Origin: an uncultured Rikenellaceae bacterium
Lineage (GTDB): Bacteria > Bacteroidota > Bacteroidia > Bacteroidales > VadinHA17
Reading direction: 5' to 3'
Assembly (NCBI GenBank): GCA_964515985.1
Contig: CAZEWS010000006.1
Location: 1-33,222, forward strand
Length of the DNA stretch: 33,222 nt
Shown here: positions 2,720 to 33,222 of the stretch, piece by piece
Position numbering within the stretch: the first letter of the stretch is position 1
Layout of the letters: each line of letters starts with the position of its first letter
The notes under the pieces: generated by a model
Told to the model about the DNA's origin: nothing
The model's input: the letters and a program-made list of their open reading frames with translations, nothing else
Databases searched by the model: none
Made by a program: the position numbers and the translations under genes

Positions 2720-2720
2720 T

Positions 2721-5280: not shown

Positions 5281-7242
5281 TCATTCATCAAAATTTTCGT
5301 TTTCAGTGTCACTCCTGATGATTTCAAATTTTTTATCATACCTGATAAAAAACATTTCTTTATTTTCAAAACCATCTGAACGGTAATTACGCTGAAAGTT
5401 GTAATTAGCATGCAGCAAGTCAATCTTGTATCGTGATACATTGTTTCTGAATCTTCTTCCATATCTGCCAAAACCACTAAGAAAGTAAAACATGATATCA
5501 TAACCCTGCCAGGCAAAACTGAATTGGTTAGGTTCAGTATGGAATTGTTTCCTGAATTTCATTATAAAATTCTTCACATCATCGTTTTCATAATCCAATA
5601 AAAACGGTGTGTACAGATGCAGATCCAAATTACAAAAATGTTCAAGTTCAATGCTTCTAAACCTTTGCCAGTTATGATATCCAAACAACTTTATCTTATA
5701 ATCCGGGGCGAGTGTATTCAGGTTTGAAACCACATTGCTCACAAAAGCTTCATTACCTGAAGCAACCAGTACGATATTATCAATATCACTTGATAAAGCA
5801 TGCTCAATACTGTTTATGGCATCATTCTTCGTGATTTGATTATTATAAACCACTTCCTTAAAAACCACTTCGTTAAAAAATGTCCGGTAGAAAAAATAAG
5901 AAAACAAATTTCGTTTTAATTCATTAATATGCTCTGTTTCCAAACTATCTCCCGGATGAATCATAACAATATTCTTATCATAAAATCGCGAAATGTAGTT
6001 CGTTATTTTATCAAATTCCGTTGATAAAGAAGGTCTGATCTGAAACAGATAGGGATTATCCTCTAAAAGTTCACTACGAGACGACAGGGGAGAAACCACC
6101 GGAATACGATATGATTTCGCATAATCGGCAACCATTCTCATGTTGAAAGAATACACAGGACCAATAATAAGATCCATTTTCCTGAGTTTTCCTTCCTCCA
6201 AAAGTTCCTGAACCGTTACAGAATCATTTTCTGTATCAAAAACAAAAAGATTAATCGACAATCCTGCTTTTTGCAACGAATCGATTGCAATAAAAGCACC
6301 TTCGTAGAACTCAAGAAAATTCAGACTTTTTGGATACATCCATGTTTCTTCCCGTTCGATGGATTTGAAAATTCTATTCCCAAACTCATCTATTTCAGAA
6401 GAATCGATAACAATCCGTTCGTCATTCTCATCAAGATAAAAAGGAAGCATAAGGGCTACATCAATTGTTCCTGAAATTTTAAAGTCGCCGGGCAAATCGA
6501 ATTCCATATCCAGGGAATCAACAGGCTCCTCAATATTGTTCATATTTTGGGCATAACTAATGCTAAAAATGTCAATCTTTTTCTTTTCAACAGGAATCCT
6601 GAGATATTGACCATATTTTGGACCACCTTTTAAACCATCATTGGATCTCCTGATCTCACGAACCGGAACCATGAATTTCCTTGAAATTGAATACAATGTT
6701 TCCTTTTTCCCAACACGATAATACGTAAAATGGTCTTCATCATGATCGAAATTTTCAACATTGGTTTGAAACCTTTGTTTAGGAATCTTGATTCCTGTTC
6801 CGATTGGGATATCATTAATATCCAATTCAGGGTTATGTTTTAAAATCTCTTCAGCTTCAACACCATAATCAACCGAAAGTGAATAAATTGTTTGGTTTTC
6901 CTCAATAACATGGTAAATATATTTTCCCGGTTCTTCCGGTTTAAATTCTTCGATTTCATTATTCTCAACTACCGGTATTTTCAAAGCCTGCCCGGGTTGT
7001 AAACCAAATTTTACAGTTGGGTTTTCCTTCGATATCTCTTTTTGCGAAACAAAATAAACCCTGCTAATGGCAAATAAGGTTTGACCTTTTTTAACAATAT
7101 GAATGTAATAGGGTTTACCCTCCAGTATGATCTTATCTTTTGATTTCTTAACCTCAACAGGCTCATCCTGTCCATACAAGGCTCCAATCAAAACAAGTTG
7201 AATAATAATTGCCGTAATAAAGCCGGAAGGTGATTTCAACAT
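5281..7242 (-). CDS. LysM (x3) plus periplasmic-binding-protein-like domain protein
   Basis: Three LysM repeats (e.g. YIHIVKKGQTLFAISRVY..., YHVIEENQTIYSLSVDY..., YYRVGKKETLYSISRKF...) precede a type-I PBP-like C-terminal half. The track start 7254 is TTG; ATG 7242 gives a clean signal peptide. Confidence 0.8.
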   Translation of the reverse strand: MLKSPSGFITAIIIQLVLIGALYGQDEPVEVKKSKDKIILEGKPYYIHIVKKGQTLFAISRVYFVSQKEISKENPTVKFGLQPGQALKIPVVENNEIEEFKPEEPGKYIYHVIEENQTIYSLSVDYGVEAEEILKHNPELDINDIPIGTGIKIPKQRFQTNVENFDHDEDHFTYYRVGKKETLYSISRKFMVPVREIRRSNDGLKGGPKYGQYLRIPVEKKKIDIFSISYAQNMNNIEEPVDSLDMEFDLPGDFKISGTIDVALMLPFYLDENDERIVIDSSEIDEFGNRIFKSIEREETWMYPKSLNFLEFYEGAFIAIDSLQKAGLSINLFVFDTENDSVTVQELLEEGKLRKMDLIIGPVYSFNMRMVADYAKSYRIPVVSPLSSRSELLEDNPYLFQIRPSLSTEFDKITNYISRFYDKNIVMIHPGDSLETEHINELKRNLFSYFFYRTFFNEVVFKEVVYNNQITKNDAINSIEHALSSDIDNIVLVASGNEAFVSNVVSNLNTLAPDYKIKLFGYHNWQRFRSIELEHFCNLDLHLYTPFLLDYENDDVKNFIMKFRKQFHTEPNQFSFAWQGYDIMFYFLSGFGRYGRRFRNNVSRYKIDLLHANYNFQRNYRSDGFENKEMFFIRYDKKFEIIRSDTENENFDE

Positions 7243-9925: not shown

Positions 9926-10885
9926 TCAATATTTATAATTTATACCTTTCAGGTATTCCAAAACATTCTTCTCAATCCGTCTTAATACATTGCTGCTATC
10001 CACCTTTATGAACCTTTCACCTGTGATTTTTTCGTACAGCTCAATGTACCGCTCTGATACCTGGTTAACAAAATCATCTGTCATTTCGGGCACTACCTGC
10101 CCCTCTTTACCCTGAAACCCATGCTTGATTAACCACTCACGCACAAACTCTTTTGAAAGCTGTTTTTGTGGTTCTCCTTTCGCAAGCCTTTCTTCATAAC
10201 CTTCTGAATAAAAATAGCGTGACGAATCCGGGGTATGGATTTCATCAATCAGGAATATCTGGTTTTCTTTTTTACCAAACTCGTATTTCGTATCTACCAG
10301 GATCAATCCTTTTTCTGCAGCCATATCCGTTCCACGCTTAAATAGCTTTTTTGTAAATTCTTCGAGCAATTCGTAATCCTTTTTATTCACTAAGCCCCTG
10401 GCTATTATTTCTTCTTTTGAAATATCTTCATCATGACCCTCTAAGGCTTTGGTGGTTGGCGTGATGATAGGCTCCGGAAACCTCTCGTTTTCCTTCATTC
10501 CATCAGGCAATGGGACTCCACATAGTTTCCTTTTTCCCGATTTATATTCCCTCCAGGCATGCCCCGCCAGATAACCCCTGATCACCATTTCAACCATTAT
10601 GGGTTCCACGTATTGCCCTATGGTAACCATTGGGTCGGGCGACGCAATTTTCCAATTGGGTACGATGTCGTTTGTGGCATCGAGAAATCTTGTGGCAATC
10701 TGGTTCAGTATCTGACCTTTATATGGTATCCCTCTCGGAAGAACAACATCAAATGCTGAAATCCTATCCGATACGATCATTAACAGATATTTGTCCGAAA
10801 TGTTATAAACATCACGAACTTTACCTTTGTAGATACTTTTTTGCCCTGGTAGTCGGTAATTGGTTTTTACTATTGCCTGGTTCAT
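9926..10885 (-). CDS. purC: phosphoribosylaminoimidazole-succinocarboxamide synthase (SAICAR synthetase)
   Basis: [17 protein letters not shown] and [11 protein letters not shown] motifs; about 319 aa, the long-form PurC. Confidence 0.95.
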
Positions 10886-11272
10886 GGTTTTTGGTTCTCG
10901 GTTCCCGGTTCTCAGTTCCCGGTTACAAACACAAAATTCTCCTCCTTAGATAAGGAGCCTGCCCGAAAGAATGAATTCTTTCATTCAGGCGGGGGGAGGT
11001 GGTCTGACCAATTATTTCCTTAATTTTATATCTACCACCCCTCCCCCGTAGGGATGCCTGTGGCACTGTCAAGGAGGGGAATTTTTGTTGGTGCATATAG
11101 CCGAATACAATTCAGCTCTACATCCGTACCTTTCACATTTATCTTTTTCCCCTATGAAATGCTACTTTGCAGCAGTGGCTCTGCCACTATTTCACAGGGT
11201 AAACTTTTGTCTTTTGTATTGTCTCTTAATTCAAATCCCCTTCTCCCCTTCTCCCCTTCTCCTTCACAGACT

Positions 11273-11298
11273 CTGCCAGGTCCTTCGGACGCTGGCAG
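11273..11298. repeat. CTGCCAG-GTCC-TTC-GGAC-G-CTGGCAG hairpin module
   Basis: Seen directly. Same architecture as 11416-11441 and 22228-22253. Confidence 0.8.
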
Positions 11299-11415
11299 GT
11301 CTCTCCCAGTCTCTTAGTCTCTCTTTCTCTCAGTCCCTTAGTCACCCAGTCTCCCCATCACCCAGTCCCATTAGCCTCATCCTCTCAACCTTAGCCTCTG
11401 TTTTTTTTACCAACC

Positions 11416-11441
11416 CTGCCAGGTCTTAGAGACTCTGGCAG
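11416..11441. repeat. CTGCCAG-GTCT-TAG-AGAC-T-CTGGCAG hairpin module
   Basis: Seen directly. The inner stem differs from the other copies by compensatory changes. Confidence 0.8.
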
Positions 11442-11692
11442 GTCTTCTATCAATCAGAAATCCTCAATCAACAATCCGAAATTCAAAATCCCTTAATCCG
11501 AAATCCGCAATTACTCGCTCCCGCAATCCTTCACTCAATCCTGCTCGTGAGACATTCTGTTCGCTTTGCTCTATCCGAAATAAAATGACGAACCGACCGA
11601 CCGACCGAAGTCATTCGGGCAGGGAACTTCGTCCTACTGATCTCTTTTTCATCCCTTTCCCTATTACCCAGCACCTACAATTCTTTCACTTC

Positions 11693-12673
11693 TCACCTTT
11701 CACTCTTCACATCTTTCATCTTTCTTCCTTCATCCTTCTTTTCGTATGCTTTTACAATATCTTTCACCAATTTATGACGAACGACGTCACGCAGATCAAA
11801 TTCAATAACAGCAATTCCCTCGATGTTTTTCAGAATCCTGGTAGCCTGCCATAAGCCGGAATCGTTTATACTCGGAAGGTCAATCTGGGTAATATCTCCG
11901 GTAACAACAAATTTCGAATTTTGTCCCATCCGGGTGAGAAACATTTTAAGCTGGTTCATTGTGGTATTCTGTGCTTCATCCAGGATGACAAAAGCATCTT
12001 CCAGCGTTCTACCCCTCATATAGGCCAATGGAGCGATTTGAATAGTTCCTTCTTCAAGATAAATGGCCAATTTTCTAACCGGAATCATGTCACGAAGAGC
12101 GTCATACAAAGGTTGCAGATACGGGTCAAGTTTCTCCTTTACATCACCAGGCAGGAAGCCAAGATGTTCACCTGCCTCAACAGCCGGCCTCGTCAGAACT
12201 ATCCGGCGTACTTCTTTGTTTTTCAATGCCCTGACAGCCAAAGCAATTGCCGTGTATGTCTTGCCGGTACCAGCCGGACCGAAAGCCAGAAGAATATCAT
12301 TGGTCTGATATTCCTTAACAAGACTAACCTGATTTACAGTTCTGGCATAAATTGGTTTCCCTGTATTTCCGTATATAATTGGCTCTTTAAAATCCCCGTT
12401 TGACGCAGAAATTTGATGAGATGTGTCGAATAACAATTGTTCAATATCCTCCTCATGGATAAGGTTATATTTATGGCAATAATCCACAAGTATATTTATT
12501 TTTATCTCAAAATCGTTAATTTCCTCTTCTTTACCAATGACTTTTAATTCATTTCCTCTTGCTACAATTTTTAATTTAGGGAAAAATCCTTTGATCTTAT
12601 CCAGGTGTTTATTTTTCACCCCGTATATATTAACAGGATCAATCCCATCTAAATATATGATCTTTTCATTCAT
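11693..12673 (-). CDS. phoH: PhoH-family ATPase
   Basis: Walker A GPAGTGKTY, Walker B ILDEAQN and the ITQIDLP motif. Confidence 0.93.
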   Translation of the reverse strand: MNEKIIYLDGIDPVNIYGVKNKHLDKIKGFFPKLKIVARGNELKVIGKEEEINDFEIKINILVDYCHKYNLIHEEDIEQLLFDTSHQISASNGDFKEPIIYGNTGKPIYARTVNQVSLVKEYQTNDILLAFGPAGTGKTYTAIALAVRALKNKEVRRIVLTRPAVEAGEHLGFLPGDVKEKLDPYLQPLYDALRDMIPVRKLAIYLEEGTIQIAPLAYMRGRTLEDAFVILDEAQNTTMNQLKMFLTRMGQNSKFVVTGDITQIDLPSINDSGLWQATRILKNIEGIAVIEFDLRDVVRHKLVKDIVKAYEKKDEGRKMKDVKSER

Positions 12674-15682: not shown

Positions 15683-16184
15683 TTATTCATTCGTTTTATC
15701 TTCCATCAAAACAGGAATAATGGAATACTGGAATACTGGAATAATGCCTGCCCTGTCTACCCTGTGAAACAGCAACTACGTTGCTCCTGCTACGCAGGGT
15801 TTCACGGGGTGAACCCTGTGAAATTTTATTATTTCTTTAGGGTTCACCCTGTTGTATTTATTGATTTATCCTACGTGGTAAAATGCGATGTAGGAGCTAT
15901 TTCTACACGGGAATACTGTCCCTACCAAAGGCCTGCCCGAAAGACTTCGGTCGGGCGGGCATCCCTTTGGGAGAATTAGGTGTTAAAGATATCCCTATGG
16001 GAGAGAACACTAAAACACACAAACACGTAAACACATAAATACAATAAAATAACATTTCAATCGCTAATAATTAAATAAAAGTAATTTAATCCAATACTCC
16101 AATATTCCAATATTCCGTAACTTATAATATCCTTCTTTTAACCGATTCGTTACAAATCTTTTTACAACGTTGCTATTATTCAAT
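15683..16184. repeat. mosaic intergenic repeat cluster B
   Basis: Bounded by octamer arrays GGAATAMT x4 (15714-15745) and their inverted counterpart (16091-16116). Contains a three-way-junction element, a GGTGAACCCT hairpin (15808-15848), and a 42-nt module (15870-15911) shared with 25470-25552. Confidence 0.85.
15760..15809. repeat. 50-nt element able to fold as a three-way junction
   Basis: The outer stem 15760-15770/15799-15809 has 11 bp including one G-T. It encloses AGCAAC-TAC-GTTGCT and CCTGC-TAC-GCAGG with no unpaired linker. An inverted copy lies at 25573-25629. Confidence 0.7.
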
Positions 16185-20332: not shown

Positions 20333-20740
20333 ATGAAGATGGAAGATGAATTAGAAAAAAAGGAAGAACTTGAAAAAAGCGAAGAATCTGAGAAATTCGA
20401 AAGGGAAGAAATTTTCTCAAGAGCAGTAAGAGCTGGAAAAAGGACTTATTTCTTCGATGTAAAAGCAACCCGAAGAAATGACTTATACCTGACCATTACT
20501 GAAAGTAAAAAACGTTTTAATCGTGATGGTAGGTTCTACTATGAGAAGCACAAAATCTTTCTGTACAAAGAAGATTTTGACAAATTTTCAGAAGGTTTAT
20601 CTGAAGTGGTAAATTTCATCAAATCATCTAAAAATGAACCTATTGAAAATGAAGAAATAAAAAAGCCGGATGCAGACGATACATTAGTTGAAAACTATAC
20701 CAATGTAGAGTTTGAAGACCTGGAAGAAAAGAAGGAATAA
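20333..20740 (+). CDS. DUF3276 (PUR-alpha-like nucleic-acid-binding) protein
   Basis: RAGKRTYFFDVKATRRNDLYLTITESKK and HKIFLYKEDFDKF are typical of the family. Confidence 0.75.
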   Translation: MKMEDELEKKEELEKSEESEKFEREEIFSRAVRAGKRTYFFDVKATRRNDLYLTITESKKRFNRDGRFYYEKHKIFLYKEDFDKFSEGLSEVVNFIKSSKNEPIENEEIKKPDADDTLVENYTNVEFEDLEEKKE

Positions 20741-20742
20741 AT

Positions 20743-20772
20743 AAAAAAAGTCCCGGTTGGGGCTTTTTTTTT
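20743..20772 (+). terminator. rho-independent terminator
   Basis: AAAAAAGTCCC-GGTT-GGGGCTTTTTTTTT starts 3 nt after the stop codon. Confidence 0.65.
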
Positions 20773-20820
20773 GTACATCTTTTTATGATTAAGGCATAAC
20801 ATTTTTAAAAAATTGCTACA

Positions 20821-21118
20821 ATGAACCAGATTGTATACAAGCCAATCGGGTATATTCAAACTCCATTCCAACGACCTGAGAATATGCCGATACAGCCAAG
20901 TGCCGCCGAAGGAACTACAGGTAAAGTGGTTCTGTATCATGATTTTACAGCAGGATTAAAAGATCTGGAAGGTTTTTCACATGCTTATCTAATCTATCAT
21001 TTACATTATTAAACCCTTCATTCCTAATTTTGACAATCCGGAGAAAGTCAAAACCGGATGGTTCGCTAAAGTAAGTTCAAATTTTCCCAAACGAAAATCA
21101 GATAACCGGTTTAACTAA
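20821..21118 (+). pseudogene. trmO: tRNA methyltransferase TrmO/TsaA (YaeB family) remnant with internal deletion and frameshift
   Basis: N-terminal YKPIGYIQTPF...GKVVLYHDF..LEGFSHAYLIYHLH stops at 21012. A C-terminal-type KPFIPNFDNPEKVKTGWF... continues in the +1 frame to the stop at 21116-21118. The central RSPxRPNPIG region is absent. Confidence 0.65.
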
Positions 21119-21620
21119 GTAAAGCTGCAAGCTTTAAGTTACAAGCTAATTTCGACTCTTCCGTTCCCGGTTCTCAGTTCCCGGTTCCTGGTTCCTTTTT
21201 TCTTGTTTCTACTTGGTTCTCTACACTACGCGCTTTGTGCTTTTTCCAGCCGAATACAATTCGGCTCTATATTTCGGTCTAAGCTCCCCACCACATCTGC
21301 GTACTGCTTACTGCCTACTTCTGCTGCAACTACTAACTCTTCTCTCCAATCAGTATTCACTTTTTCCCCTGTTAAATGCTACTTCGCAGCAGTGCCCGCC
21401 TGACTTATTCCTGCCCGATTCAGGCCCTGTGAAATCGAATATTATTTCACTGGGCAGGCGGGTTCGTCATTCGAATAATCGTCAATCATTTATCAAACAC
21501 CCGGCACCCAGTATCCCAGCCCGTACCAATCGGCACGTTCGGGCGGGCAGCACCTTGCACCTAACACCCCAGTGAAATATGCTCCTTCGTCGCATTTCAC
21601 GGGGCAGGCCCAAAATCTTC
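21119..21620. repeat. mosaic intergenic repeat cluster C
   Basis: The 24-mer at 21163-21186 is identical to 10901-10924. Also contains the GCCGAATACAATTCGGC module (21249-21272), a nested hairpin (21395-21462) and a CCCCAGTGAAAT hairpin (21567-21604). Confidence 0.85.
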
Positions 21621-21914
21621 CTAACCGTATTTCTCCATTTTTTCCTCAATCGTTACATCCTGGTTTATTCTGCTATGGATCTTTAAATTAGCCAAAATCT
21701 CCGATGCACCGTTTTCGAAACAGTTTACCTGAACTTCTTTTATAAGTTCCATGATTTGGTCATAGTCTCCCTCTAGTACCGTTTCAAAAGGACAAACCAT
21801 GAATTTTATGCCAGACTCCTGAATAACCTGGATTGCGGCATCAATTATTTTATACGAATGAATGTTTTTAGCTGTAGGTAAAATTTGGATCGCTACGTTC
21901 ACTTTATTTTTCAT
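21621..21914 (-). CDS. MTH1187/YkoF-family thiamine-binding protein (DUF77)
   Basis: VNVAIQILP...CPFETVLEG pattern. The track start 21974 lies upstream of a TAtaTTTG box, so ATG 21914 is preferred. Confidence 0.75.
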   Translation of the reverse strand: MKNKVNVAIQILPTAKNIHSYKIIDAAIQVIQESGIKFMVCPFETVLEGDYDQIMELIKEVQVNCFENGASEILANLKIHSRINQDVTIEEKMEKYG

Positions 21915-21962
21915 AATGATTCGTTTAAATTGAAATAAGTTTATGGGTTTCGGGTTTATTTT

Positions 21963-21970
21963 CAAATATA
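21963..21970 (-). promoter_or_regulatory. candidate -7 box TAtaTTTG
   Basis: Reverse complement of caaatata, 49 nt upstream of ATG 21914. Confidence 0.35.
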
Positions 21971-22227
21971 GCATCGTCCAGCTTTCATTCTTCTAACTCC
22001 ACTCATTATTCTTTCCTGTAAATATAAAAAAATCCTAAAAATTTTCACTATGCTAATCTAAAGGAAGGAGTTCTTCGGACAAACTTTTTTAACATAAACA
22101 CATGAATACATTCACACACAAAAACTTCTTAAACAATTTAGCAGTTTAGCCATTTATCAAACAACCAGTATCCAGCAACTTCCCCTTCATCTTCTCAACC
22201 TAAATCTCAGCCTTTCCTTCACAGACT

Positions 22228-22253
22228 CTGCCAGGTTTTCCAAACTCTGGCAG
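22228..22253. repeat. CTGCCAG-GTTT-TCC-AAAC-T-CTGGCAG hairpin module
   Basis: Seen directly. This is the third copy with a compensatory inner stem. Confidence 0.8.
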
Positions 22254-22400
22254 GTCTTTTTCAAGTCGAATACAATTCGGCTCTACATCCGCACCTTTCA
22301 CTTTTTACTTTTATCTTTTCTCGTTCAGATCCCTCCTTTTGTCGGGATAAGTTCGACTATTGTTTTTCGCTACACCAGTTTGCGAAAATCAAGTCTCACT

Positions 22401-22408
22401 TACTTTTG
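22401..22408 (+). promoter_or_regulatory. candidate -7 box TActTTTG embedded in repeat motif TACTTTTGCC
   Basis: 129 nt upstream of feoAB. The same 10-mer occurs at 26537 and 26641. Confidence 0.3.
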
Positions 22409-22536
22409 CCTTTGATATTTTTTCTTTATCTTTATTTATTCTATATAAAAATAATAATGAATTGGCATTGCAAGAACAACAAATAAATTGTAGGTATGCC
22501 CTGCCTGAAAAGTGTATAGAAAATTATTTATAATCC

Positions 22537-25047
22537 ATGAATCTTTCGCAATTAAAAACAAACGAAGAAGGAGTCATTACAAAAGTCAGGGGAAGAGGTG
22601 CCTTTAGAAAAAGAATCACCGAGATGGGATTTATTAAGGGCAAGAAGGTAAAAGTGATAAAAAACGCCCCGCTAAAAGACCCCATTGAATACAGTCTTAT
22701 GGGTTATGAAATCTCATTAAGAAGAAGTGAAGCTCAGTTGATTGAGGTAATAACTGAGAAGGAGGCTACTGGTCTTTTTAACAAAAGATTTAATGGAGTA
22801 GAGGCTCAGGCAGGATTAGTTCAGTCAGCTAAAATCAAGGGGAAAAATATAAACGTTGCCCTTGTTGGAAATCCAAATTCCGGAAAAACAACACTTTTTA
22901 ATTATGCTTCACATTCCAGGGAACATGTTGGAAATTACGGTGGTGTTACTGTCGGTTCAAAAGCTGCAAAATTCCGACAGGAAGGATACACCTTCAATGT
23001 TGTAGATTTACCAGGCACATACTCTCTTTCAGCCTACTCACCCGAGGAACTATATGTTCGGAAGTTTATCTTTGGCGAAACACCAGACGTTTTAATCAAT
23101 ATTGTTGACGCTTCAAATCTGGAAAGGAACTTATACCTTACCACGCAATTAATTGATATGGATGTGAAGGTAATTATCGCACTGAATATGTATGATGAAC
23201 TCCAAAAACGAGGCGACCAATTTGACTATGAATCACTGGGAAAAATGATGGGGATACCTATTGTTCCCACAATCAGTTCAAAAGGACATGGTATTAAGGA
23301 ATTATTTAAAAAAGTAATTGATGTTTATGAAGACAAGGAACCGCTTGTCCGTCACATACATATAAATTATGGAAAGGAAGTTGAAAAATCCTTGAAGATC
23401 ATTCAAGACGAGATATGGAAGAATAAAAGCCTGACCGATATGGTTTCTTCCAGATTTTATGCACTGAAGCTTATCGAGAAAGATAAATCAGCTCACTTTT
23501 CACTTTCAAGATGGCCGAATTATAACGAGATAAAGGGAATTGCCGAGAATGAAATCGAAAGACTGGAAAAAATGTTTCATGAGGATAGCGAGACATTAAT
23601 AACCGATGCCAAATATGGATTTATCTCAGGTGCTTTGAAAGAAACCCTGATAAGTGGCCAACATAAACGAAATACAACTGACATTATTGATGCTTTTATT
23701 ACACACAAACTTTTCGGATTTCCCATATTCTTTCTCCTCATTTTTATTATGTTCTTTGCTACATTCGAATTAGGTCAGTATCCTATGAATTGGTTGGATC
23801 AATCCATTGTTTTATTTTCGGGATGGTTACAATCAATTATACCTGCCGGAGCGCTGAAAGATCTTTTAATCAATGGAATTATTGGAGGAGTCGGCAGTGT
23901 AATTGTTTTTCTTCCGAATATTTTAATCCTGTTTTTCTTCATTTCGTTGATGGAAGATACCGGCTACATGGCACGTGCTGCCTTTATTATGGATAAAATC
24001 ATGCATAAAATCGGGTTACACGGACGGTCATTTATTCCCTTGATAATGGGTTTTGGTTGTAATGTCCCGGCCATTATGGCTACAAGAACCATAGAGAACA
24101 GAAATAATCGCCTGGTAACCATGCTGATTAACCCTTTTATGTCATGTAGTGCCAGACTACCCGTATATATTCTGGTCATTGGAGCATTCTTCCCTAAGCA
24201 TCCGGGACTGGTTTTATTTATTATATATCTGATTGGCATCTTCATAGCAGCTACGGTGGCAAAAATATTAAAGAAAACTTTCTTTCGAACAGAGGAAATC
24301 CCTTTTGTTATGGAATTGCCATCATACCGCGTACCTACCCTAAAATCAACACTAAAGCATATGTGGTACAAAGGTGAACAATACCTGAAAAAAATGGGAG
24401 GGGTTATATTAATTGCATCCATTTTGATTTGGGCATTGGGATATTATCCAAAAAACGTCGCCTATTCCATCGACTACGATACCACTATTAGCACTCATGA
24501 AAGCCAGTATAACCAAGTATTAGAAAGCGTTAAGTTTGAAAACCCTGACAGATATTACCAAGTTTTAAAGGAAAAAAACGGAGTCATTCGTTCTCTCTTA
24601 CTGGCAAAAGAATCTGAAAAACAGGAAAAATCATACATAGGACAAATAGGTCAGTTCATAAAACCGGTACTCAAACCTCTTGGATTTGACTGGAAAATGG
24701 GTGTTAGCCTGTTAACAGGGATTGCCGCTAAAGAAGTTGTTGTAAGTACAATGGGTGTTTTATACCAGGCTGGAGCTGATATTGATGAAAAATCAGAAAC
24801 GCTAATTGGAAAAATAAGAGATCAAACATACACAAACGGGATTCGCTCCGGTGAAAAAGTTTATACTCCCGTTATCGCTTTCGGGTTTCTGATGTTTATA
24901 TTAATTTACTTCCCGTGTGTGGCAGTTATTGTTGCCATTAAAAAAGAATCAGGTAGCTGGAAATGGGCTTTATTTACCATATTTTATACCACATCACTTG
25001 CCTGGTTTGTTGCATTTGTTGTTTATCAGATAGGAAGTTTATTTTAA
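22537..25047 (+). CDS. feoB: ferrous iron transporter, FeoA-FeoB fusion
   Basis: N-terminal FeoA SH3-like domain (GVITKVRG...GFIKGKKVKVIK), G-domain VALVGNPNSGKTTLFN and DLPG, and a multi-TM C-terminal region. Confidence 0.95.
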   Translation: MNLSQLKTNEEGVITKVRGRGAFRKRITEMGFIKGKKVKVIKNAPLKDPIEYSLMGYEISLRRSEAQLIEVITEKEATGLFNKRFNGVEAQAGLVQSAKIKGKNINVALVGNPNSGKTTLFNYASHSREHVGNYGGVTVGSKAAKFRQEGYTFNVVDLPGTYSLSAYSPEELYVRKFIFGETPDVLINIVDASNLERNLYLTTQLIDMDVKVIIALNMYDELQKRGDQFDYESLGKMMGIPIVPTISSKGHGIKELFKKVIDVYEDKEPLVRHIHINYGKEVEKSLKIIQDEIWKNKSLTDMVSSRFYALKLIEKDKSAHFSLSRWPNYNEIKGIAENEIERLEKMFHEDSETLITDAKYGFISGALKETLISGQHKRNTTDIIDAFITHKLFGFPIFFLLIFIMFFATFELGQYPMNWLDQSIVLFSGWLQSIIPAGALKDLLINGIIGGVGSVIVFLPNILILFFFISLMEDTGYMARAAFIMDKIMHKIGLHGRSFIPLIMGFGCNVPAIMATRTIENRNNRLVTMLINPFMSCSARLPVYILVIGAFFPKHPGLVLFIIYLIGIFIAATVAKILKKTFFRTEEIPFVMELPSYRVPTLKSTLKHMWYKGEQYLKKMGGVILIASILIWALGYYPKNVAYSIDYDTTISTHESQYNQVLESVKFENPDRYYQVLKEKNGVIRSLLLAKESEKQEKSYIGQIGQFIKPVLKPLGFDWKMGVSLLTGIAAKEVVVSTMGVLYQAGADIDEKSETLIGKIRDQTYTNGIRSGEKVYTPVIAFGFLMFILIYFPCVAVIVAIKKESGSWKWALFTIFYTTSLAWFVAFVVYQIGSLF

Positions 25048-25462: not shown

Positions 25463-25629
25463 ATTATTCCCCTGTAGAAAAAGCTCCTACCCTGATGAAA
25501 TGTTTTCGTACCTCAAATTTCATAGGGCAAGCGTCGCATTTTACCCCGTAGGATAATTATTCCAACGGGGTGAACCCTGCGCAGCAGGAGCAACCTAGTT
25601 GCTGTTTCACAGGGTAGACAGGGTAGGCA
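25463..25629. repeat. composite repeat, an inverted counterpart of 15745-15917
   Basis: It comprises ATTATTCC, the 42-nt module interrupted by a 43-nt hairpin (25491-25533), and a 57-nt segment (25573-25629) that matches the reverse complement of 15745-15801 at 54/57. Confidence 0.8.
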
Positions 25630-26286: not shown

Positions 26287-26371
26287 AAAACCTTACCGTT
26301 AACCGCGCTTGTTATTCAGAGATTAATATCATTAGGTCGTTATTAGCTCGCTTCGCTCGCGTAATTCGATA

Positions 26372-26459
26372 GTCATACAATGGTCATACAATAGTCATAC
26401 AATAGTCATACAATGGTCATACAATGGTCATACGATGGTCATATAGTAGTCATACGATA
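26372..26459 (+). repeat. tandem array 1: 8 x 11 bp, consensus GTCATACAATG
   Basis: Units counted by hand, with 0-3 substitutions per unit. Confidence 0.95.
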
Positions 26460-26558
26460 GTTTACCCTGTGAAATTGCGAAGCAATATTTCATGGGGTCA
26501 TTCAGTAGTAATCTGGTAGTATTACTTTGTACTTTTTACTTTTGCCTTTACTTGATTG

Positions 26559-26635
26559 GTCATACAATGGTCAAACAATAGTCAAACAATGGTCATTCAG
26601 TTGTCATTAGGTTGTAATTAGGTAGTGATTAGGTA
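26559..26635 (+). repeat. tandem array 2: 7 x 11 bp, degenerating from GTCATACAATG to GTGATTAGGTA
   Basis: Counted by hand. Preceded by TTACTTGATTG, as is array 3. Confidence 0.9.
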
Positions 26636-26729
26636 GTTTTTACTTTTGCCTTTTCACCCTGTGAAATACGAAGTAATTTTGCTTGCAAAATTATTTCACT
26701 GGGTAAACTTTTGTCTTTTTACTTGATTG

Positions 26730-26795
26730 GTCATACGATGGTCATACGATTGTCATACAGTAGTCATACGATGGTCATACAGTAGTCATTCAATA
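26730..26795 (+). repeat. tandem array 3: 6 x 11 bp, consensus GTCATACGATG
   Basis: Counted by hand. Preceded by TTACTTGATTG. Confidence 0.95.
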
Positions 26796-26850
26796 GTCTT
26801 TAAAAGTTTGAAAATTGTTGGGTATTAATTAACTAAAAAATCAGATTTCG

Positions 26851-26895
26851 ATGCAATTAGAAGAATTAAAAGTATATCAACTTTCCATGACGTGA
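26851..26895 (+). pseudogene. 14-codon stump resembling the N-terminus of a four-helix-bundle (23S rRNA IVS / Avd-like) protein
   Basis: MQLEELKVYQLSMT* follows the (D/E)L.V(W/Y)Q.(S/A)M pattern I recall for this family's N-termini. It runs straight into the right-hand repeat array. Confidence 0.35.
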
Positions 26896-27146
26896 GCGAA
26901 GCGAGCTTATGACAATAAATGACAGCGAAGGCGCAGCCTGAGCGAATGACACGAACGAAGTGAGTATATGACGGCGCAGCCAAATGACAATTGAATGACG
27001 CCCGCAGGGCTAATTACACGAGCGAAGCGAGTGAATGACGCGAACGCAGTGAGCTAATGACTACTGAATGACAGCCGAGCGCAGCGAGGCAAATGACACG
27101 AGCGAAGCGAGTGAATGACGCAAGGCACGCAGTGCCAAGCAAATTA
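26896..27146 (+). repeat. ATGAC-punctuated GC-rich array rich in GNA-triloop mini-hairpins
   Basis: ATGAC occurs 12 times in 26887-27119. The 26-mer ACACGAGCGAAGCGAGTGAATGACGC occurs twice, at 27016 and 27096. GCGAAGC occurs three times, alongside several GCA-loop hairpins. Confidence 0.9.
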
Positions 27147-28145
27147 CTATCCCATTGTTGCTACCATCACAGCCTTAATAGTATGAACCCGGTTTTCTGC
27201 CTCGTCGAATACTACAGATAATTCCGATTCAAAGACTTCGTCTGTCACTTCCATGCTCTCAAGTCCAAATTTTTGATAGGTCTCTTCACCTACTTTAGTT
27301 TCCCGGTTATGAAATGCCGGTAAACAATGTAAAAATTTCACATTAGGATTACCGGTTAATTCAACAACCTTTGCATTTACCTGGTAGGGTATTAATAATT
27401 TTATTCTTTCTTCCCATGTCGCATCCGATTCTCCCATGGAAACCCAAACATCGGTATAAAGGAAATCAACTCCTTTAACTGCTTCTTCAATATTTTTAGT
27501 TATGGTGATTTTTGTGCCGGATTTTTGAGCAATTTCCAAACATTGTGATACCAGTTCTTTATGCTGTTGACAATCCTCCGGGGCAGCTGCTCTGAAATCC
27601 ATTCCCATTTTCGCCGCTCCCACCAGCAGTGAATTCCCCATATTGTTACGGGCATCACCCAGATAGCAAAAACTAATTTCCTGCAAAGGTTTGTCCGAAT
27701 GCTCCATCATGGTCAGAAAATCAGCAAGAACTTGAGTGGGATGAAACTCATCGGTTAATCCATTCCAAACCGGGACTCCCGCATATTTACCAAGCTCTTC
27801 AACGATTTTCTGTCCAAAACCACGATATTCAATCCCGTCATACATCCTTCCCAGAACCCTGGCTGTATCCCTCATCGATTCCTTATGCCCGATCTGTGAT
27901 CCAGTAGACCCCAGATAAGTAACATGCGCACCCTGGTCGTAGGCAGCTACTTCGAATGCACACCGGGTTCGGGTTGAGGACTTTTCAAAAATAAGAGCAA
28001 TATTTTTCCCGTTTAATTTTTGTTGCTCAGTACCTGAATATTTTTCGTTTTTGAGATTAACTGACATATCAAGCAAATAATTAATCTCTTCAGCCGTGAA
28101 ATCCAATAACTTCAGGAAGTTTCTATTGTGTAAGTTAACAGTCAT
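27147..28145 (-). CDS. argF: ornithine carbamoyltransferase (ArgF/ArgI-like; possibly catabolic ArcB)
   Basis: [20 protein letters not shown] and HCLPA motifs, with strong resemblance to E. coli ArgI along its whole length. Confidence 0.95.
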
Positions 28146-28524: not shown

Positions 28525-29481
28525 TCAATCCTCATATTCCATCGTAATTTTTGTCCCAAAGGTTTTATCCTCCAGTTTGGTGGCTTCTGTAATAACACTT
28601 TTTTCACCGCCATGCTCAATAAATTGCAGACATGCTTTTATTTTAGGCGCCATGCTCCCTTTGGTAAACATACCTTGTTCAAGGTATTTCAGGGTATCTT
28701 TATAGTTTAGAAATTCTTTGATTTCCTGATTTGGTTTTTTGTAATTTATATACACGTATGAAACATCGGTAAGGATATAAAATTTATCGGCATGGATGTT
28801 GATAGCAAGCAGAGCGGATGCTAGGTCTTTATCAATTACTGCTTCAACAGGAGAGATATTAAAATCTTCATCCATACAAACCGGTACTCCTCCTCCACCC
28901 GCAGCAATCACTATGTTACCGTCACGGGCAAGTCTTTCAATGATGTTTGCATTTTTAATCAATACAGGTTTTGGTGAAGGAACTACCCTGCGATATCCAT
29001 CATGCTCTTTAACTTCTTCTTTAAAAATCCAGCTTTTGCTTTTGTGCAATAATTTTGCTTGCTCCTTTGAATAAACTCTACCAATACGCTTTTGAGGATC
29101 TTTAAAAGCAGGATCATTTTTATCTACTACAACCTGTGTAACCAGGGTTACAACATTTTTTTTTATATTAAACTTATTCAGTATGTTCAGGAACACTCGT
29201 TCGATCATATATCCTATTCCTCCCTGAGAATCTGCCACACAAATATCAACAGGCATTTGTGCTATTCCATACAGTTCTTCACCGGCATCATTTCTCATTA
29301 ATATGTTTCCAACCTGAGGTCCGTTTCCATGAGTAATAACCAAATCATAACCCTCTTTTAGCAGAAAAATCAGGTTTTCCAGGGTTTTAGTAGTATTATC
29401 TTCCTGCTCATCAATAGTACCAACCTGATTTCCACGCAATAAAGCATTCCCCCCTAAAGCTACAACAGCTAATTTATTCAT
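28525..29481 (-). CDS. arcC: carbamate kinase
   Basis: MNKLAVVALGGNALL N-terminus, THGNGPQVG and AAGGGGVPV motifs. ATG 29481 is preferred over TTG 29487. Confidence 0.92.
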   Translation of the reverse strand: MNKLAVVALGGNALLRGNQVGTIDEQEDNTTKTLENLIFLLKEGYDLVITHGNGPQVGNILMRNDAGEELYGIAQMPVDICVADSQGGIGYMIERVFLNILNKFNIKKNVVTLVTQVVVDKNDPAFKDPQKRIGRVYSKEQAKLLHKSKSWIFKEEVKEHDGYRRVVPSPKPVLIKNANIIERLARDGNIVIAAGGGGVPVCMDEDFNISPVEAVIDKDLASALLAINIHADKFYILTDVSYVYINYKKPNQEIKEFLNYKDTLKYLEQGMFTKGSMAPKIKACLQFIEHGGEKSVITEATKLEDKTFGTKITMEYED

Positions 29482-29487
29482 AGTCAA

Positions 29488-29801
29488 TTTTTTGTCTGAA
29501 ATTTATTCCGGTCTACAAAACTATAAATTTTTTGTTTATTTTTACAGATACTCTGGCAGGTCTTTCTCCAGCCAAATACAATTCGTCTCTACATATTGCT
29601 CCAAGCTCTCCGCGCTACGCTCTCTGCCCCATTCTCCATGCTTCTTGCCCTTTATTTGGAGACTGTGGACTGCTGACTGGCGACTTTCCTGCCTATTGCA
29701 TTTAACTTTCTGATTTTCAAAAATAATTCACCCATAAAGACCTACTTTTAAATATATTTCATATTTTTATAGGCTTATAAATAAAAACCATTCCTATTAT
29801 T
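29488..29801. repeat. mosaic intergenic repeat cluster (half CTGGCAGGTCT module plus GCCAAATACAATTCGTCTCTACAT)
   Basis: The segment 29551-29594 has the same module order as 22245-22288. Confidence 0.75.
29516..29523 (-). promoter_or_regulatory. candidate -7 box TAgtTTTG for arcC
   Basis: Reverse complement of caaaacta, 35 nt upstream of ATG 29481. Confidence 0.35.
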
Positions 29802-30491: not shown

Positions 30492-30889
30492 TCTTACACC
30501 TTACCTCCCGGTTTATCACTTTTAAAATACTTGGTATACCATAGTTCATGTAATTCTTTTTCCTAAATCCTTATACTTCTCCTTAGCCTAATATTAATCC
30601 CTTTCAAAATTAGCAGATTACTATGATAATACCCATTTTTTTAATTCACCCTGTGAAATAATCCCTATCTTTACTTCCTTAAATTATACTTTCTGTCTCC
30701 CGAAACCCGATAACTATCGGGTTCGGGATTGGCAGAAAATCACAAAACACAAATAACCATAATCAAATAAATACCAATATTCAATAACCAAATTCCAAAC
30801 TTCTAAAAAAAATGATCATTGTTTGAATATTGCAATTTCGGATTTGTAATTTACCTGCCCGGTGAAATTTTACATATGTTGTATTAATA
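30492..30889. repeat. intergenic region with partial repeat modules
   Basis: Contains a half-site CACCCTGTGAAATA (30647-30660, compare 26655), the hairpin CCCGAAACCCGATA-AC-TATCGGGTTCGGG (30699-30727), and CCCGGTGAAATTTT (30858-30871). Confidence 0.5.
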
Positions 30890-33222
30890 ATGGAAAAGAA
30901 AAACACCCAAAATAAAAAAGCAAAGAAAAAAACCAGGGGAATATTCAAACCGTTAAAATTCTTCACCGACGACCGGTTTAAATTGGTTCTGGGATTGTTT
31001 TTTATTGTTTTTGCCCTTTTTCTGACCCTTGCTTTTATTTCTTATTTTTTCACATGGAAAATCGATCAAAGCTTCGAATGGTCCGGCATATTCTCTTCAT
31101 CCGACATAAAAGTTGAAAACTGGTCAGGAAAAACCGGGGCTTATTTTGCTTTTCTTTTTTTAAATAAATGGTTTGGAATTGTATCCTTTTTATTCCCTTT
31201 GCTGCTTATCATTATTGGATTCAGATTGTTAAATCTAAAACTGCTTCCTGTTTGGAAAACAATAAAAGTTACGATTTTTGGTGTCATACTTATTTCTGTT
31301 TGTCTGGGATTTCTTTTCGGTGACACAGGCGGATATCTCGGCAGTGGTTTGGGAGGCAGCCATGGCTTTTTATTGAGTGAATGGCTGAATGCTTTCATAG
31401 GAAAAACAGGTACCGGTTTTTTACTTTTAGTGTCCGTTATAGCTTTCATCCTCTTTTCCTTTAGTAAATCGTTAGATTGGATTGGAAAACCACCGCCGGT
31501 AAAAGAAGATGAAATAACCCAGGATACCTTCTACACAAAGAAAGACAAGGCAGTATCCGTAATAAATCTGGGGGAAGACGACGAATCGGATGAAGACCTA
31601 ATGTTCGAAACAAAAGAAAAAGAAGAAAGTGAAAATGTTAAACTCACCATCGAACAAAAGATAGGCAATGACATTCTCACCAATGGAGAACTAAAGAAGA
31701 AACTCCTTGAGGATTATGACCCGACCCTTGATCTTTCTTCCTTTAAATTTCCACCTGTTAGTTTATTGGACGATCATTCCACCGAAAATTCTATTGTCAG
31801 CAAGGAAGAATTAATCAGCAATAAGAACAGAATTGTTGAAACACTGGGTAACTACAAAATTCAGATCGATAAAATAAAGGCGACTATTGGTCCTACGGTT
31901 ACATTATATGAAATTGTTCCGGCGCCCGGTATCAGAATTTCGAAAATAAAAAATCTTGAAGATGATATAGCTTTAAGCTTATCGGCATTGGGAATCAGAA
32001 TAATTGCTCCGATACCCGGAAGAGGGACCATTGGAATTGAAGTTCCCAACCGTAAGCCTGAGATCGTTTCGATGAAATCGATGATAACATCGAAAAAATT
32101 CCAGGAATCGGATTACGAGCTGGCAATTGCCATCGGTAAGACGATCTCGAATGAGACTTATATATTAGACCTAACAAGAATGCCACATTTATTGATAGCC
32201 GGGGCTACAGGCCAGGGAAAATCAGTAGGATTGAATGTTCTGATCACTTCATTACTATATAAAAAATACCCTTCCGAAATAAAATTTATTCTCATTGACC
32301 CCAAAAAGGTTGAACTTACACTCTATTCTAAATTAGAAAGGCACTACCTGGCAAAAATACCTGGAATTGAAGATGCTATCATTACCGATATTCAGGATAT
32401 CACTAATACACTGAATTCCTTATCGATTGAGATGGACCAGCGTTACGACCTCCTCAAAATGGCCCACGTCAGGAATATAAAGGAGTATAATGAAATGTTC
32501 AAGAACCGGAAATTGAATCCTGAAAAAGGCCATCGTTTTCTGCCCTATATTATTATGATTATTGATGAATTTGCAGATCTGATCGTGACAGCGGGAAAGG
32601 GAGTTGAGAATCCTCTTGCCAGGCTTGCCCAGCTTGCCAGAGCCGTTGGAATTCATCTTGTCATTGCCACGCAACGACCTTCTATAAATATCCTAACCGG
32701 TACAATTAAAGCCAACTTCCCCGTACGAATCGCCTACAGGGTAATTTCAATGATGGATTCCAGAACCATCCTTGACAGCCCCGGAGCAAATCAATTGGTT
32801 GGACGGGGAGATATGCTCATTTCTCCGGGCAGCGATCTGATAAGAGTGCAGTGTGCCTTTGTAAGTACAACTGAAATTGAAAAAATAACAGAATTTATCG
32901 GTTCACAGCGTGGCTATCCATCAGCTTTTCTACTACCCGAATATTCTGACGAAACCGGAGAAGATATGGGGGAAATTGACCTTCAAAAACGGGATCCGTT
33001 TTTCGATGAAGCCGCCCATATTGTTGTGCTTCACCAGCAAGGATCTACGTCCCTTATCCAACGAAAATTATCCATAGGTTACAACAGAGCTGGCAGGATA
33101 ATTGATCAATTGGAAGCGGCTGGCATCGTCGGCCCATTTGAAGGAAGCAAGGCCCGGCATGTTCTTATTCCTGATGAGTATTCTTTGGAACAATATTTGA
33201 GTAAGATTGACAGGGAAGAAAC
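30890..33222 (+). CDS. ftsK: DNA translocase FtsK (3' end beyond the window)
   Basis: Not in the ORF track because no stop codon lies in the window. The frame is open from ATG 30890 to the end. It has N-terminal TM helices, YKFPPVSLL, Walker A GATGQGKSV, Walker B IIDEFADL, and a C-terminal winged-helix STSLIQRKLSIGYNRAGRIIDQLE. Confidence 0.93.
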   Translation, partial: MEKKNTQNKKAKKKTRGIFKPLKFFTDDRFKLVLGLFFIVFALFLTLAFISYFFTWKIDQSFEWSGIFSSSDIKVENWSGKTGAYFAFLFLNKWFGIVSFLFPLLLIIIGFRLLNLKLLPVWKTIKVTIFGVILISVCLGFLFGDTGGYLGSGLGGSHGFLLSEWLNAFIGKTGTGFLLLVSVIAFILFSFSKSLDWIGKPPPVKEDEITQDTFYTKKDKAVSVINLGEDDESDEDLMFETKEKEESENVKLTIEQKIGNDILTNGELKKKLLEDYDPTLDLSSFKFPPVSLLDDHSTENSIVSKEELISNKNRIVETLGNYKIQIDKIKATIGPTVTLYEIVPAPGIRISKIKNLEDDIALSLSALGIRIIAPIPGRGTIGIEVPNRKPEIVSMKSMITSKKFQESDYELAIAIGKTISNETYILDLTRMPHLLIAGATGQGKSVGLNVLITSLLYKKYPSEIKFILIDPKKVELTLYSKLERHYLAKIPGIEDAIITDIQDITNTLNSLSIEMDQRYDLLKMAHVRNIKEYNEMFKNRKLNPEKGHRFLPYIIMIIDEFADLIVTAGKGVENPLARLAQLARAVGIHLVIATQRPSINILTGTIKANFPVRIAYRVISMMDSRTILDSPGANQLVGRGDMLISPGSDLIRVQCAFVSTTEIEKITEFIGSQRGYPSAFLLPEYSDETGEDMGEIDLQKRDPFFDEAAHIVVLHQQGSTSLIQRKLSIGYNRAGRIIDQLEAAGIVGPFEGSKARHVLIPDEYSLEQYLSKIDREE

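Follow-up and report, generated by a model that had tools for sequence, protein, structure and literature searches.

Intergenic gaps in a 33,222-nucleotide (nt) stretch of DNA from an uncultured Rikenellaceae bacterium (contig CAZEWS010000006.1 of assembly GCA_964515985.1; the whole stretch is called the window here) are unusually long, 300 to 900 nt, and hold short repeats that recur in partly the same order. Are these repeats independent units, and if so, what has spread them? A first-pass annotation had likened them to the bacterial interspersed mosaic elements (BIMEs) of Escherichia coli, which are built from repetitive extragenic palindromic (REP) units, and direct inspection found every string that it quoted at the coordinates given. 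Our analysis centers on one module, a 23-nt hairpin designated E, which we interpret as a REP of the GTAG type that was probably amplified in trans by a REP-associated tyrosine transposase (RAYT) and then shuffled among other families of small repeats. The census of repeats was made in sister metagenome-assembled genomes (MAGs) and metagenome contigs, not in the window's own genome.

Anatomy of the E element

On the plus strand, E (GCCGAATACAATTCGGCTCTAC / AGCCGAATACAATTCGGCTCTAC) is a perfect palindrome, AGCCGAAT-ACA-ATTCGGCT, with a GTAG foot on the opposite strand; the minus strand reads GTAG-AGCCGAAT-TGT-ATTCGGCT, followed by GG. The foot sits directly on an 8-bp stem closed by a 3-nt loop, which gives 23 nt with the foot included, and as single-stranded DNA the unit folds at -7.7 kcal/mol (z = -5.2). 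REPs are canonically defined by GT[AG]G lying 0 to 2 nt from a stem of 7 to 20 bp with a loop of 2 to 5 nt (PMC6006769; PMC3733652), and we also applied a length of 20 to 40 nt for a short palindrome. E agrees with this definition in stem, loop, and length, in its foot, as GTAG stands immediately before the stem-opening AG in 50 CCGAAT-TGT-ATTCGG cores from sampled loci, and in its many dispersed, almost wholly extragenic copies. Because the anatomy fits the published definition, we classify E, on the strength of its sequence, as a putative canonical REP of the GTAG type. The suggestion that the units of the mosaic are REP-like is borne out for E; of about ten modules, E alone is shown to be a REP.

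Four matches to E with at most three mismatches begin in the window at 11099, 21248, 22264, and 29570, against none in 100 dinucleotide shuffles. A second hairpin, H (CTGCCAGG-N11-CTGGCAGGTCT), which has no GTAG foot, occurs in three full copies (at 11273, 11416, and 22228) where none is expected; the recurrence of modules is therefore real. All four E copies are intergenic, and all window copies of E and H lie on the plus strand; the first-pass annotation had noted neither this shared strand nor the palindrome of E with its GTAG foot. Two hairpins form side by side when the region 22188-22301 is folded as single-stranded DNA, H at 22223-22257 and E at 22264-22282 (z = -6.9). The GTAG foot is retained in three of the four E copies, the one at 21248 reading TATAG. 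At position 21270, nine of nine contigs from other E copies in metagenome run X1 carry the C of the consensus CTAC foot (word depth 3200). Inspection of wobble pairs in the mutated window copies gave no consistent pattern as to the functional strand.

Copy number and distribution

We scanned for GAATACAATTCNGCTCTA in one genome per species, with 80 matches listed, so that all counts are lower bounds. E occupies at least 32 loci in the Bacteroidota MAG CSMAG_1309 and at least 20 in the Bacteroidota MAG CSMAG_1571, and at least three further loci among the matches listed belong to two other Bacteroidota MAGs, CSMAG_2400 (L075) and P01_A01_bin.57 (L029 and L056). Metagenome depth over E is 30 to 120 times that of its flanks. 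The word depth in X1, 1953 to 3200 over E versus 26.7 on unique flanks, suggests about 100 copies of E per genome equivalent, as an order of magnitude to which related genomes in the sample also contribute. Two matches lie in contigs assigned to other phyla: one from Heimdallarchaeota (B3_Heim, L014) has E with H-type neighbors as in the Bacteroidota MAGs, and one from Hydrogenedentota (SJ475, L009) has the full E only. Both contigs are probably mis-binned, and the E and H repeats could serve as a lineage marker.

Assortment of the modules

Neighbors were tabulated for 66 E copies from the window and the loci of its lineage, as the first-pass annotation had proposed. To the left of E stands an H-type arm in 37 copies, a CCCTCC..GGAGGG hairpin in 3, and other sequence in 26; to its right are at least six recurrent tails (T1 to T6), the commonest being T2 (12 of 66), and many unique sequences. 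The H-type left neighbor is found with each of the six tails (4, 4, 3, 2, 3, and 2 copies) as well as with 17 further right flanks. This free combination of left and right neighbors excludes the reading of the modules as fragments of one longer duplicated repeat, the outcome that the annotation had named as fatal to its proposal. E is a free-standing unit, and the modules assort independently. The linker between H and E measures 4 to 8 nt and has 24 variants in 34 junctions; E comes next after 11 of 25 full H copies, and most other H copies lead into TCTCCCAG-type arrays. The recurring order is a preferred adjacency of H, a short T/C linker, and E, with a few common pairs of E and tail, and not a fixed element.

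When the window was compared by BLASTN with its own sequence and with related loci, segments repeated in the window or in related MAGs appeared in about ten of its gaps and in no coding region. E is single at all loci but one, where two copies stand in direct orientation, and 65 of the 66 copies share their orientation within a locus. Independently combining modules agree with the description BIME-like; the alternation of two or more REPs at regular spacing and the small set of conserved linker motifs that define BIMEs in the strict sense were not found. Nor does E form the inverted doublets of REPINs (REP doublets forming hairpins), which occur only at four low-copy loci of a relative of E, GTAGCTCCGAATTGTATTCGGAG, described below. 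The term BIME-like is right for the appearance of the mosaic and probably for its working, and not for strict membership.

Companion hairpins and tandem arrays

H is itself variable, with compensatory changes at its two apical pairs in 5 and 9 of 24 copies and one variant bearing a 28-nt palindromic extension in the 5' arm. The hairpins that had been described as GTGAAAT-type form a third family, K, with 11-nt arms (CCCTGTGAAAT and ATTTCACAGGG) and interiors of 8 to 42 nt, typically two mini-hairpins with GAA, GGA, or AAA loops, giving a Y shape that is kept despite very different sequences. A regular expression for K had 39 matches on both strands of the window and sister loci, which come from about 20 sites, as palindromic copies mostly match twice; window sites are 15760-15810, 21568-21604, 25483-25620, 26465-26496, 26657-26704, and the two in Table 1. 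The interior AAATGCTACTTYGCAGCAGTG, noticed earlier as shared by two of these hairpins, lies within 35 nt of 91% identity (11143-11177 versus 21360-21394, family D17). Tandem arrays of 7, 8, and 11 nt occupy much of the remaining gap sequence. The regions 26369-26798 and 26887-27121 hold an 11-nt tandem repeat (GGTCATACAAT and variants) in three blocks, with K-type hairpins between them, and then five copies of a 27- to 34-nt ATGACRCGAGCGAAGCGAG-type repeat; the same units also occur in related MAG loci.

Orientation and turnover

E and its partners share a strand: 23 of 24 and 31 of 32 H matches agree with E in this, and neighboring module clusters agree in orientation 10:2. The only two loci with oppositely oriented neighboring clusters, L003 and L001, might be the sites of inversions or of a replication origin or terminus. 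Between genes that run in the same direction, the GTAG foot falls on the sense strand in 31 cases and on the other strand in 6, and E lies a median of 139 nt past the upstream stop and 323 nt before the next start, in gaps with a median of 526 nt. The orientation bias is real, and both replication and transcription remain candidate causes. Composition is likewise asymmetric: in three module-rich gaps (11201-11600, 21201-21600, and 22001-22400) the plus strand has more C than G (GC skew, -0.31 to -0.47) and is nearly all pyrimidine over long stretches. Two of these gaps have G+C contents of 0.47 and 0.49 and the third, 22001-22400, has 0.36, the window mean being 0.37. C-GNA-G triloops, which are especially stable in DNA, number 35 on the GTAG strand versus 16 on the other, a weak hint as to which strand matters.

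Turnover of the gaps is fast. Gaps whose flanks are 94 to 98% identical in CSMAG_1309 and CSMAG_1571 hold different sets of modules. A 439-nt block of the window, 21168-21606, is missing from a contig of run X5 that has 17 differences per 600 nt on its matching flank, and from contigs of X25 and X27, with the joint running from 21167 to 21607/21608. A metagenome variant lacks 150 nt between two ATTTCAC arms, with 7 nt of microhomology, and the GGTTCCC array differs by three units between metagenomes (a 21-nt insertion at 21162).

A candidate partner enzyme

RAYTs are single-tyrosine (Y1) endonucleases with a His-hydrophobic-His (HUH) motif. A tblastn search with E. coli RayT matched locus L064 of CSMAG_1309 (E value, 1.9e-4), where an open reading frame (ORF) of 211 amino acids (aa) contains the HUH motif PNHVHLII and a stretch, IEYTINNPVKAGLV, that aligns by eye with VDYIYINPVKHGWV of E. 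coli RayT. The ORF scores 27.1 bits for Pfam Y1_Tnp (cut-off 23) and 82.4 bits for the NCBIfam equivalog REP_Tyr_transpos (cut-off 80), so that the RAYT search advised in the first-pass annotation was rewarded, in a sister MAG and not in the window. Directly downstream stand four near-identical copies of GTAGCTCCGAATTGTATTCGGAG, which has the foot, loop, and six inner stem pairs of E and differs at two basal pairs, changed on both arms with pairing kept. In alternation with these copies come small inverted hairpins that end in CTAC, and one such hairpin also lies upstream of the RAYT. A RAYT gene with flanking REPs, or REPtron, is thus present in a sister genome, its REPs being a sub-family with altered basal pairs.

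In the whole genome collection, GTAGCTCCGAATTGTATTCGGAG was found at only four loci, L064 and L242, L243, and L244, and at the latter three an inverted small hairpin ending in CTAC lies 35 to 90 nt away; no second RAYT was found beside GTAGCTCCGAATTGTATTCGGAG there when we looked for one. These loci are REPIN-like inverted doublets built of two different hairpins, a GTAG-hairpin A followed by a hairpin B-CTAC. Since the RAYT-side variant is this rare, E is the amplified sub-family. We also listed 80 RAYT homologues of 38 to 54% identity from Bacteroidota, Ignavibacteriota, and Chlorobiota, about 55 of which have at least one hairpin with GTAG, a stem of about 8 bp, and a 3- to 5-nt loop within 500 nt. 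The closest relatives listed (49 to 54% identity) share the CCGAAT/ATTCGG stem and more distant ones have other stems; in these comparisons hairpin sequence therefore tracks the enzyme, as expected for matched REP-RAYT pairs.

The REPtron at L064 (5390-6270) is a presence/absence polymorphism. In X1, the RAYT contig has a depth of 7.9 versus about 25 for the neighboring HD-domain gene, the latter being the depth of the window genome, and in contigs of X1 to X3 joints from 5390 or 5442 to 6270 bypass the RAYT ORF and connect the hairpins on either side; metagenome contigs that bear the RAYT are 92 to 94% identical at this locus. Strains of E. coli likewise differ in whether they have the REPtron or have lost it by deletion (PMC3733652).

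Origin of the mosaic

We consider it probable, at roughly 0.7, that the gaps are made up of several independent families of small repeats, among which E is a REP amplified in trans by a RAYT and then shuffled. The enzyme would recognize the GTAG foot and hairpin on single-stranded DNA, which it would cut and rejoin. E would land or survive mainly in gaps, often 4 to 8 nt downstream of H, and would settle beside K-type hairpins and slippage-prone arrays of 7, 8, and 11 nt. Repeated insertion, nested growth of hairpins, slippage, and recombination between copies would shuffle the units and give rise to the partly conserved order. RAYT-driven movement of E is, we infer, the best-supported mechanism, and it would take place on single-stranded DNA at the replication fork.

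Several observations weigh against this reading. The REPs that flank the RAYT belong to the low-copy sub-family and are not E itself, and no RAYT lies within the window. Given the low depth of the RAYT and the joints that skip its ORF, the window-type genome probably has none at the L064 site, though it may have one elsewhere. Each E copy in the window carries one or two substitutions, so that these copies may be decaying relics. The GTAG foot is absent from H, K, and the tails, none of which has an identified enzyme. Among Logan contigs, a filled and empty pair for a single module with exact junctions was not recovered, because contigs break at the repeats. GC skew at third codon positions (GC3) is -0.037 on the hairpin-CTAC strand, with a bootstrap over loci, spurious ORFs excluded, that touches zero. 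A pooled estimate had made the link to the replication strand look significant, a claim that we rejected on that bootstrap. The skew is only suggestive of a GTAG strand that is rich in G (leading sequence), in other words the template of the lagging strand; in the IS200/IS605 family, strand-specific orientation is expected from action on the lagging-strand template (PMC6006769).

Other explanations were considered. One, unlikely in our view though the least so of those that follow, is that E, H, and the Y-shaped K belong to a community of three or more hairpin elements in the gaps, each single-stranded and strand-specific and all oriented with the lagging-strand template, with their stable C-GNA-G triloops mainly on the GTAG strand, and that H and K are moved by the same RAYT, through relaxed foot recognition, or by an unrecognized enzyme. 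If true, the gaps would owe their median length of about 500 nt to such a community, which would also rewrite them within species-level divergence. We are somewhat more doubtful that the modules are RNA-level cis elements, such as 3'-end stabilizers, attenuators, or terminators, which are held under selection and spread mainly by recombination, with the RAYT irrelevant today. The short distance of E from the upstream stop, the sense orientation of the GTAG hairpin in same-direction gaps, the covariation of the apical pairs of H, and the T-rich linker that often follows H are all in its favor, and in published surveys REPs lie mostly downstream of genes (PMC3733652). However, divergent genes flank two of the four E copies of the window, CTAC and not the T run of an intrinsic terminator comes after E, and a terminator scan gave 2 sites versus 1.8 in shuffles. 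Rfam yielded no match at the gathering score across the whole window and none at an E value of 1 or below in 20741-22536. Hairpin function alone also leaves the orientation bias unexplained, because a palindrome folds either way. Coverage in four candidate RNA runs was even, resembling that of DNA metagenomes.

Less probable again is a mosaic that arose with no transposase, its hairpins and short tandem motifs made and shuffled by slippage during replication, by switches of template at palindromes, and by gene conversion from gap to gap. The 150-nt deletion with its microhomology, the expansion of the heptamer array by 21 nt, and the palindromic extension of H are changes of this kind, and it is a whole block, not single units, that was seen to be present or absent. 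Dozens of dispersed 23-nt units, nearly identical to one another, that keep the GTAG foot and stand in unrelated flanks are left unexplained by slippage, as is the recurrence of this anatomy beside RAYT genes across the phylum. Very improbable, finally, is descent of the modules by decay from one longer element, whether a miniature inverted-repeat transposable element (MITE), the end of an insertion sequence, or a segmental duplication. Recurring stretches such as E with T1 (49 nt, 88%) and leader with H (53 nt, 81%) would suit it, as would the succession of T1 and a K hairpin at another X1 locus. It is opposed by the three or more classes of left neighbor, the six or more recurrent tails, and the many unique flanks, which occur in all combinations, and by an H-E linker that varies in both length and sequence. 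Across 55 loci, moreover, neither terminal inverted repeats nor a longer unit or consensus in common emerged, where a MITE is a unit of 100 to 400 nt with terminal inverted repeats and target-site duplications.

Comparison with known systems

To our knowledge, REP and RAYT systems have been studied almost only in Proteobacteria. The REP/BIME system of E. coli with its RayT (TnpA-REP), or REPtron, shares with E the GTAG foot on a short hairpin and the high extragenic copy number (PMC3733652; PMC6006769), together with clusters in which REPs are mixed with other motifs and a single RAYT gene flanked by REPs. In E. coli BIMEs, however, REPs alternate with defined linkers, whereas E is single and always co-oriented; E also differs in a stem of only 8 bp, in partners that are non-GTAG hairpins and tandem repeats of 7 to 11 nt, and in its Bacteroidota host. 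The REPIN-RAYT systems of Pseudomonas likewise pair a RAYT with REPs of its own, a family maintained in related genomes, and GTAGCTCCGAATTGTATTCGGAG forms inverted pairs as they do, but REPINs are doublets and the amplified E is not. Comparable to the pairing of E with H are GTAG-15 of Anabaena variabilis and GTAG-23 of Thermomicrobium roseum, in which a GTAG REP is regularly found with an unrelated palindrome that is also multicopy by itself (Di Nocera et al. 2013, PMC3733652); those REPs sit inside the partner palindrome, whereas E lies downstream of H.

That 2013 survey reported GTAG repeats in Proteobacteria, Cyanobacteria, Chloroflexi, and the Planctomycetes-Verrucomicrobia-Chlamydiae (PVC) group and none in Bacteroidetes (PMC3733652). 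TnpA-REP subclasses 2.4 and 2.6 of Bacteroidetes were later described as Y1 HUH proteins; REP-like structures flank them, and in subclass 2.4 these are canonical GT[AG]G REPs (Quentin et al. 2018, PMC6006769). The locus L064 has the same combination of enzyme and flanks; the mosaic context, copy number, and orientation bias of the present lineage do not figure in the 2018 study. Elements of the IS200/IS605 family use a related Y1 HUH enzyme with a hairpin and guide tetranucleotide, and their strand-specific orientation resembles the one-strand bias of E, which differs in carrying no gene, in having one hairpin in place of two distinct ends, and in a link to replication that is here suggestive. 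The intergenic mosaic elements of Neisseria and the short tandemly repeated repetitive (STRR) heptamers and small dispersed repeats of cyanobacteria are likewise arrays of short families in variable order, with heptamer tandem arrays and 20- to 30-nt units nested in hairpins. They are likened here by description, and their sequences, hosts, and known enzymes differ.

The present lineage is unusual in that its 23-nt REPs are single and co-oriented, that a hairpin without GTAG is their regular partner, that its gaps are very long and change fast, and that composition is asymmetric between the strands. A REP this compact appears to have been amplified as single units and not as doublets. The lineage is a good test case for whether RAYTs drive the spread of REPs and whether that spread is tied to replication, and genomes with and without the RAYT locus offer a natural contrast. 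On the practical side, the repeats fragment metagenome assemblies, as contigs break at modules, and seem to cause mis-binning, and their fast turnover could provide strain-level markers for Bacteroidota of cold seeps and marine sediments.

The window and its other features

The window has a G+C content of 36.7% and genes of Bacteroidota type with ordinary housekeeping functions (Table 1). The closest matches to its FeoAB are Bacteroidales MAGs of only 66% identity, a look-up of the exact protein gave no record, and metagenome runs that contain the window come from marine-sediment, cold-seep, and subsurface samples; on these grounds, the host is an uncultured Bacteroidota bacterium without a close reference genome. 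The HIP1 palindrome (GCGATCGC), hyper-abundant in most cyanobacteria, has a count of zero across the whole window. A cyanobacterial origin, to which the heptamer arrays had first pointed, was rejected on this count together with the G+C content, the type of the genes, and the FeoAB matches.

Table 1. Repeat modules and genes of the window; for E the strand is that of the GTAG foot, and genes were assigned with Pfam
Feature	Position	Strand	Remarks
purC	9926-10885	-	
GGTTCCC heptamer array	10893-10924	+	Family D2; same array at 21163-21195
REP E	11099-11121	-	1 stem substitution
Tail T1 copy	11122-11147	+	Family D11
K-type hairpin	11150-11199	+	CCCTATGAAAT, 28-nt interior of two mini-hairpins, ATTTCACAGGG
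Hairpin H, consensus-like	11268-11302	+	Followed by TCTCCCAG-type octamer array, 11302-11374
Leader CATCCTCTCAACC.. and second H copy (CTGCCAGG at 11416)	11378-11445	+	No E after it
phoH	11693-12673	-	
DUF3276	20333-20740	+	
Module block: heptamer array, E, T2, K hairpins	21168-21606	.	Present in window, absent from X5, X25, and X27 contigs
REP E	21248-21270	-	Perfect stem; foot mutated, CTAT for CTAC
Tail T2, ATTTCGGYCYARGCTC..CATCTGCGTACTGC..	21271-21318	+	Family D7
K-type hairpin with nested second pair	21367-21455	+	CCCGCCTG..(CCCTGTGAAAT..ATTTCACTGGG)..CAGGCGGG
Thiamine-binding protein	21621-21974	-	
C/T-rich leader, CATCTTCTCAACCTAAATCTCAGCC..CCTTCACAG	22188-22222	+	Often before H; related to CTCAACCT-type short tandem motifs
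Hairpin H	22223-22257	+	AGAC(T)CTGCCAGG-TTTTCCAAACT-CTGGCAGGTCT; 13- to 15-bp stem
H-E linker	22258-22263	+	T/C-rich, variable; TTTTCA in window copy
REP E	22264-22286	-	GTAG-AGCCGAAT-TGT-ATTCGACT; 1 stem substitution versus family consensus from 66 copies
Tail T1, ATCCGCACCTTTCACTTTT..	22287-22312	+	Family D11; one of at least six recurrent right neighbors of E
Fused feoAB	22537-25047	+	
Ornithine carbamoyltransferase	27147-28145	-	
Amino-acid kinase	28525-29487	-	
H right arm CTGGCAGGTCT, linker TTCTCC, degenerate E	29553-29592	+	E with 2 stem substitutions, no longer folds

Three further observations concern the window itself. At 21007, contigs of six of eight metagenome runs (X1, X2, X5, X25, X26, and, less clearly, X14) carry about 184 bases that the window does not have, and a TsaA-like window ORF (MNQIVYKPIGY...GFSHAYLIYHLHY*; region 20821-21012) is truncated at this junction; the window therefore has a deletion or an assembly loss within a small TsaA-like gene. 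A contig of X27 (depth 42.5) omits 350 nt, 21731-22082, with 5 nt of microhomology at the joint; the thiamine-binding-protein gene thereby loses its 5' part, along with the region upstream. A plus-strand ORF at 30890-33222 (MEKKNTQNKKAKKK...) of at least 777 aa has a membrane-like N terminus and runs past the window end; it presumably encodes a protein resembling the FtsK/SpoIIIE type, and it reduces the last gap of the window to 30492-30889.

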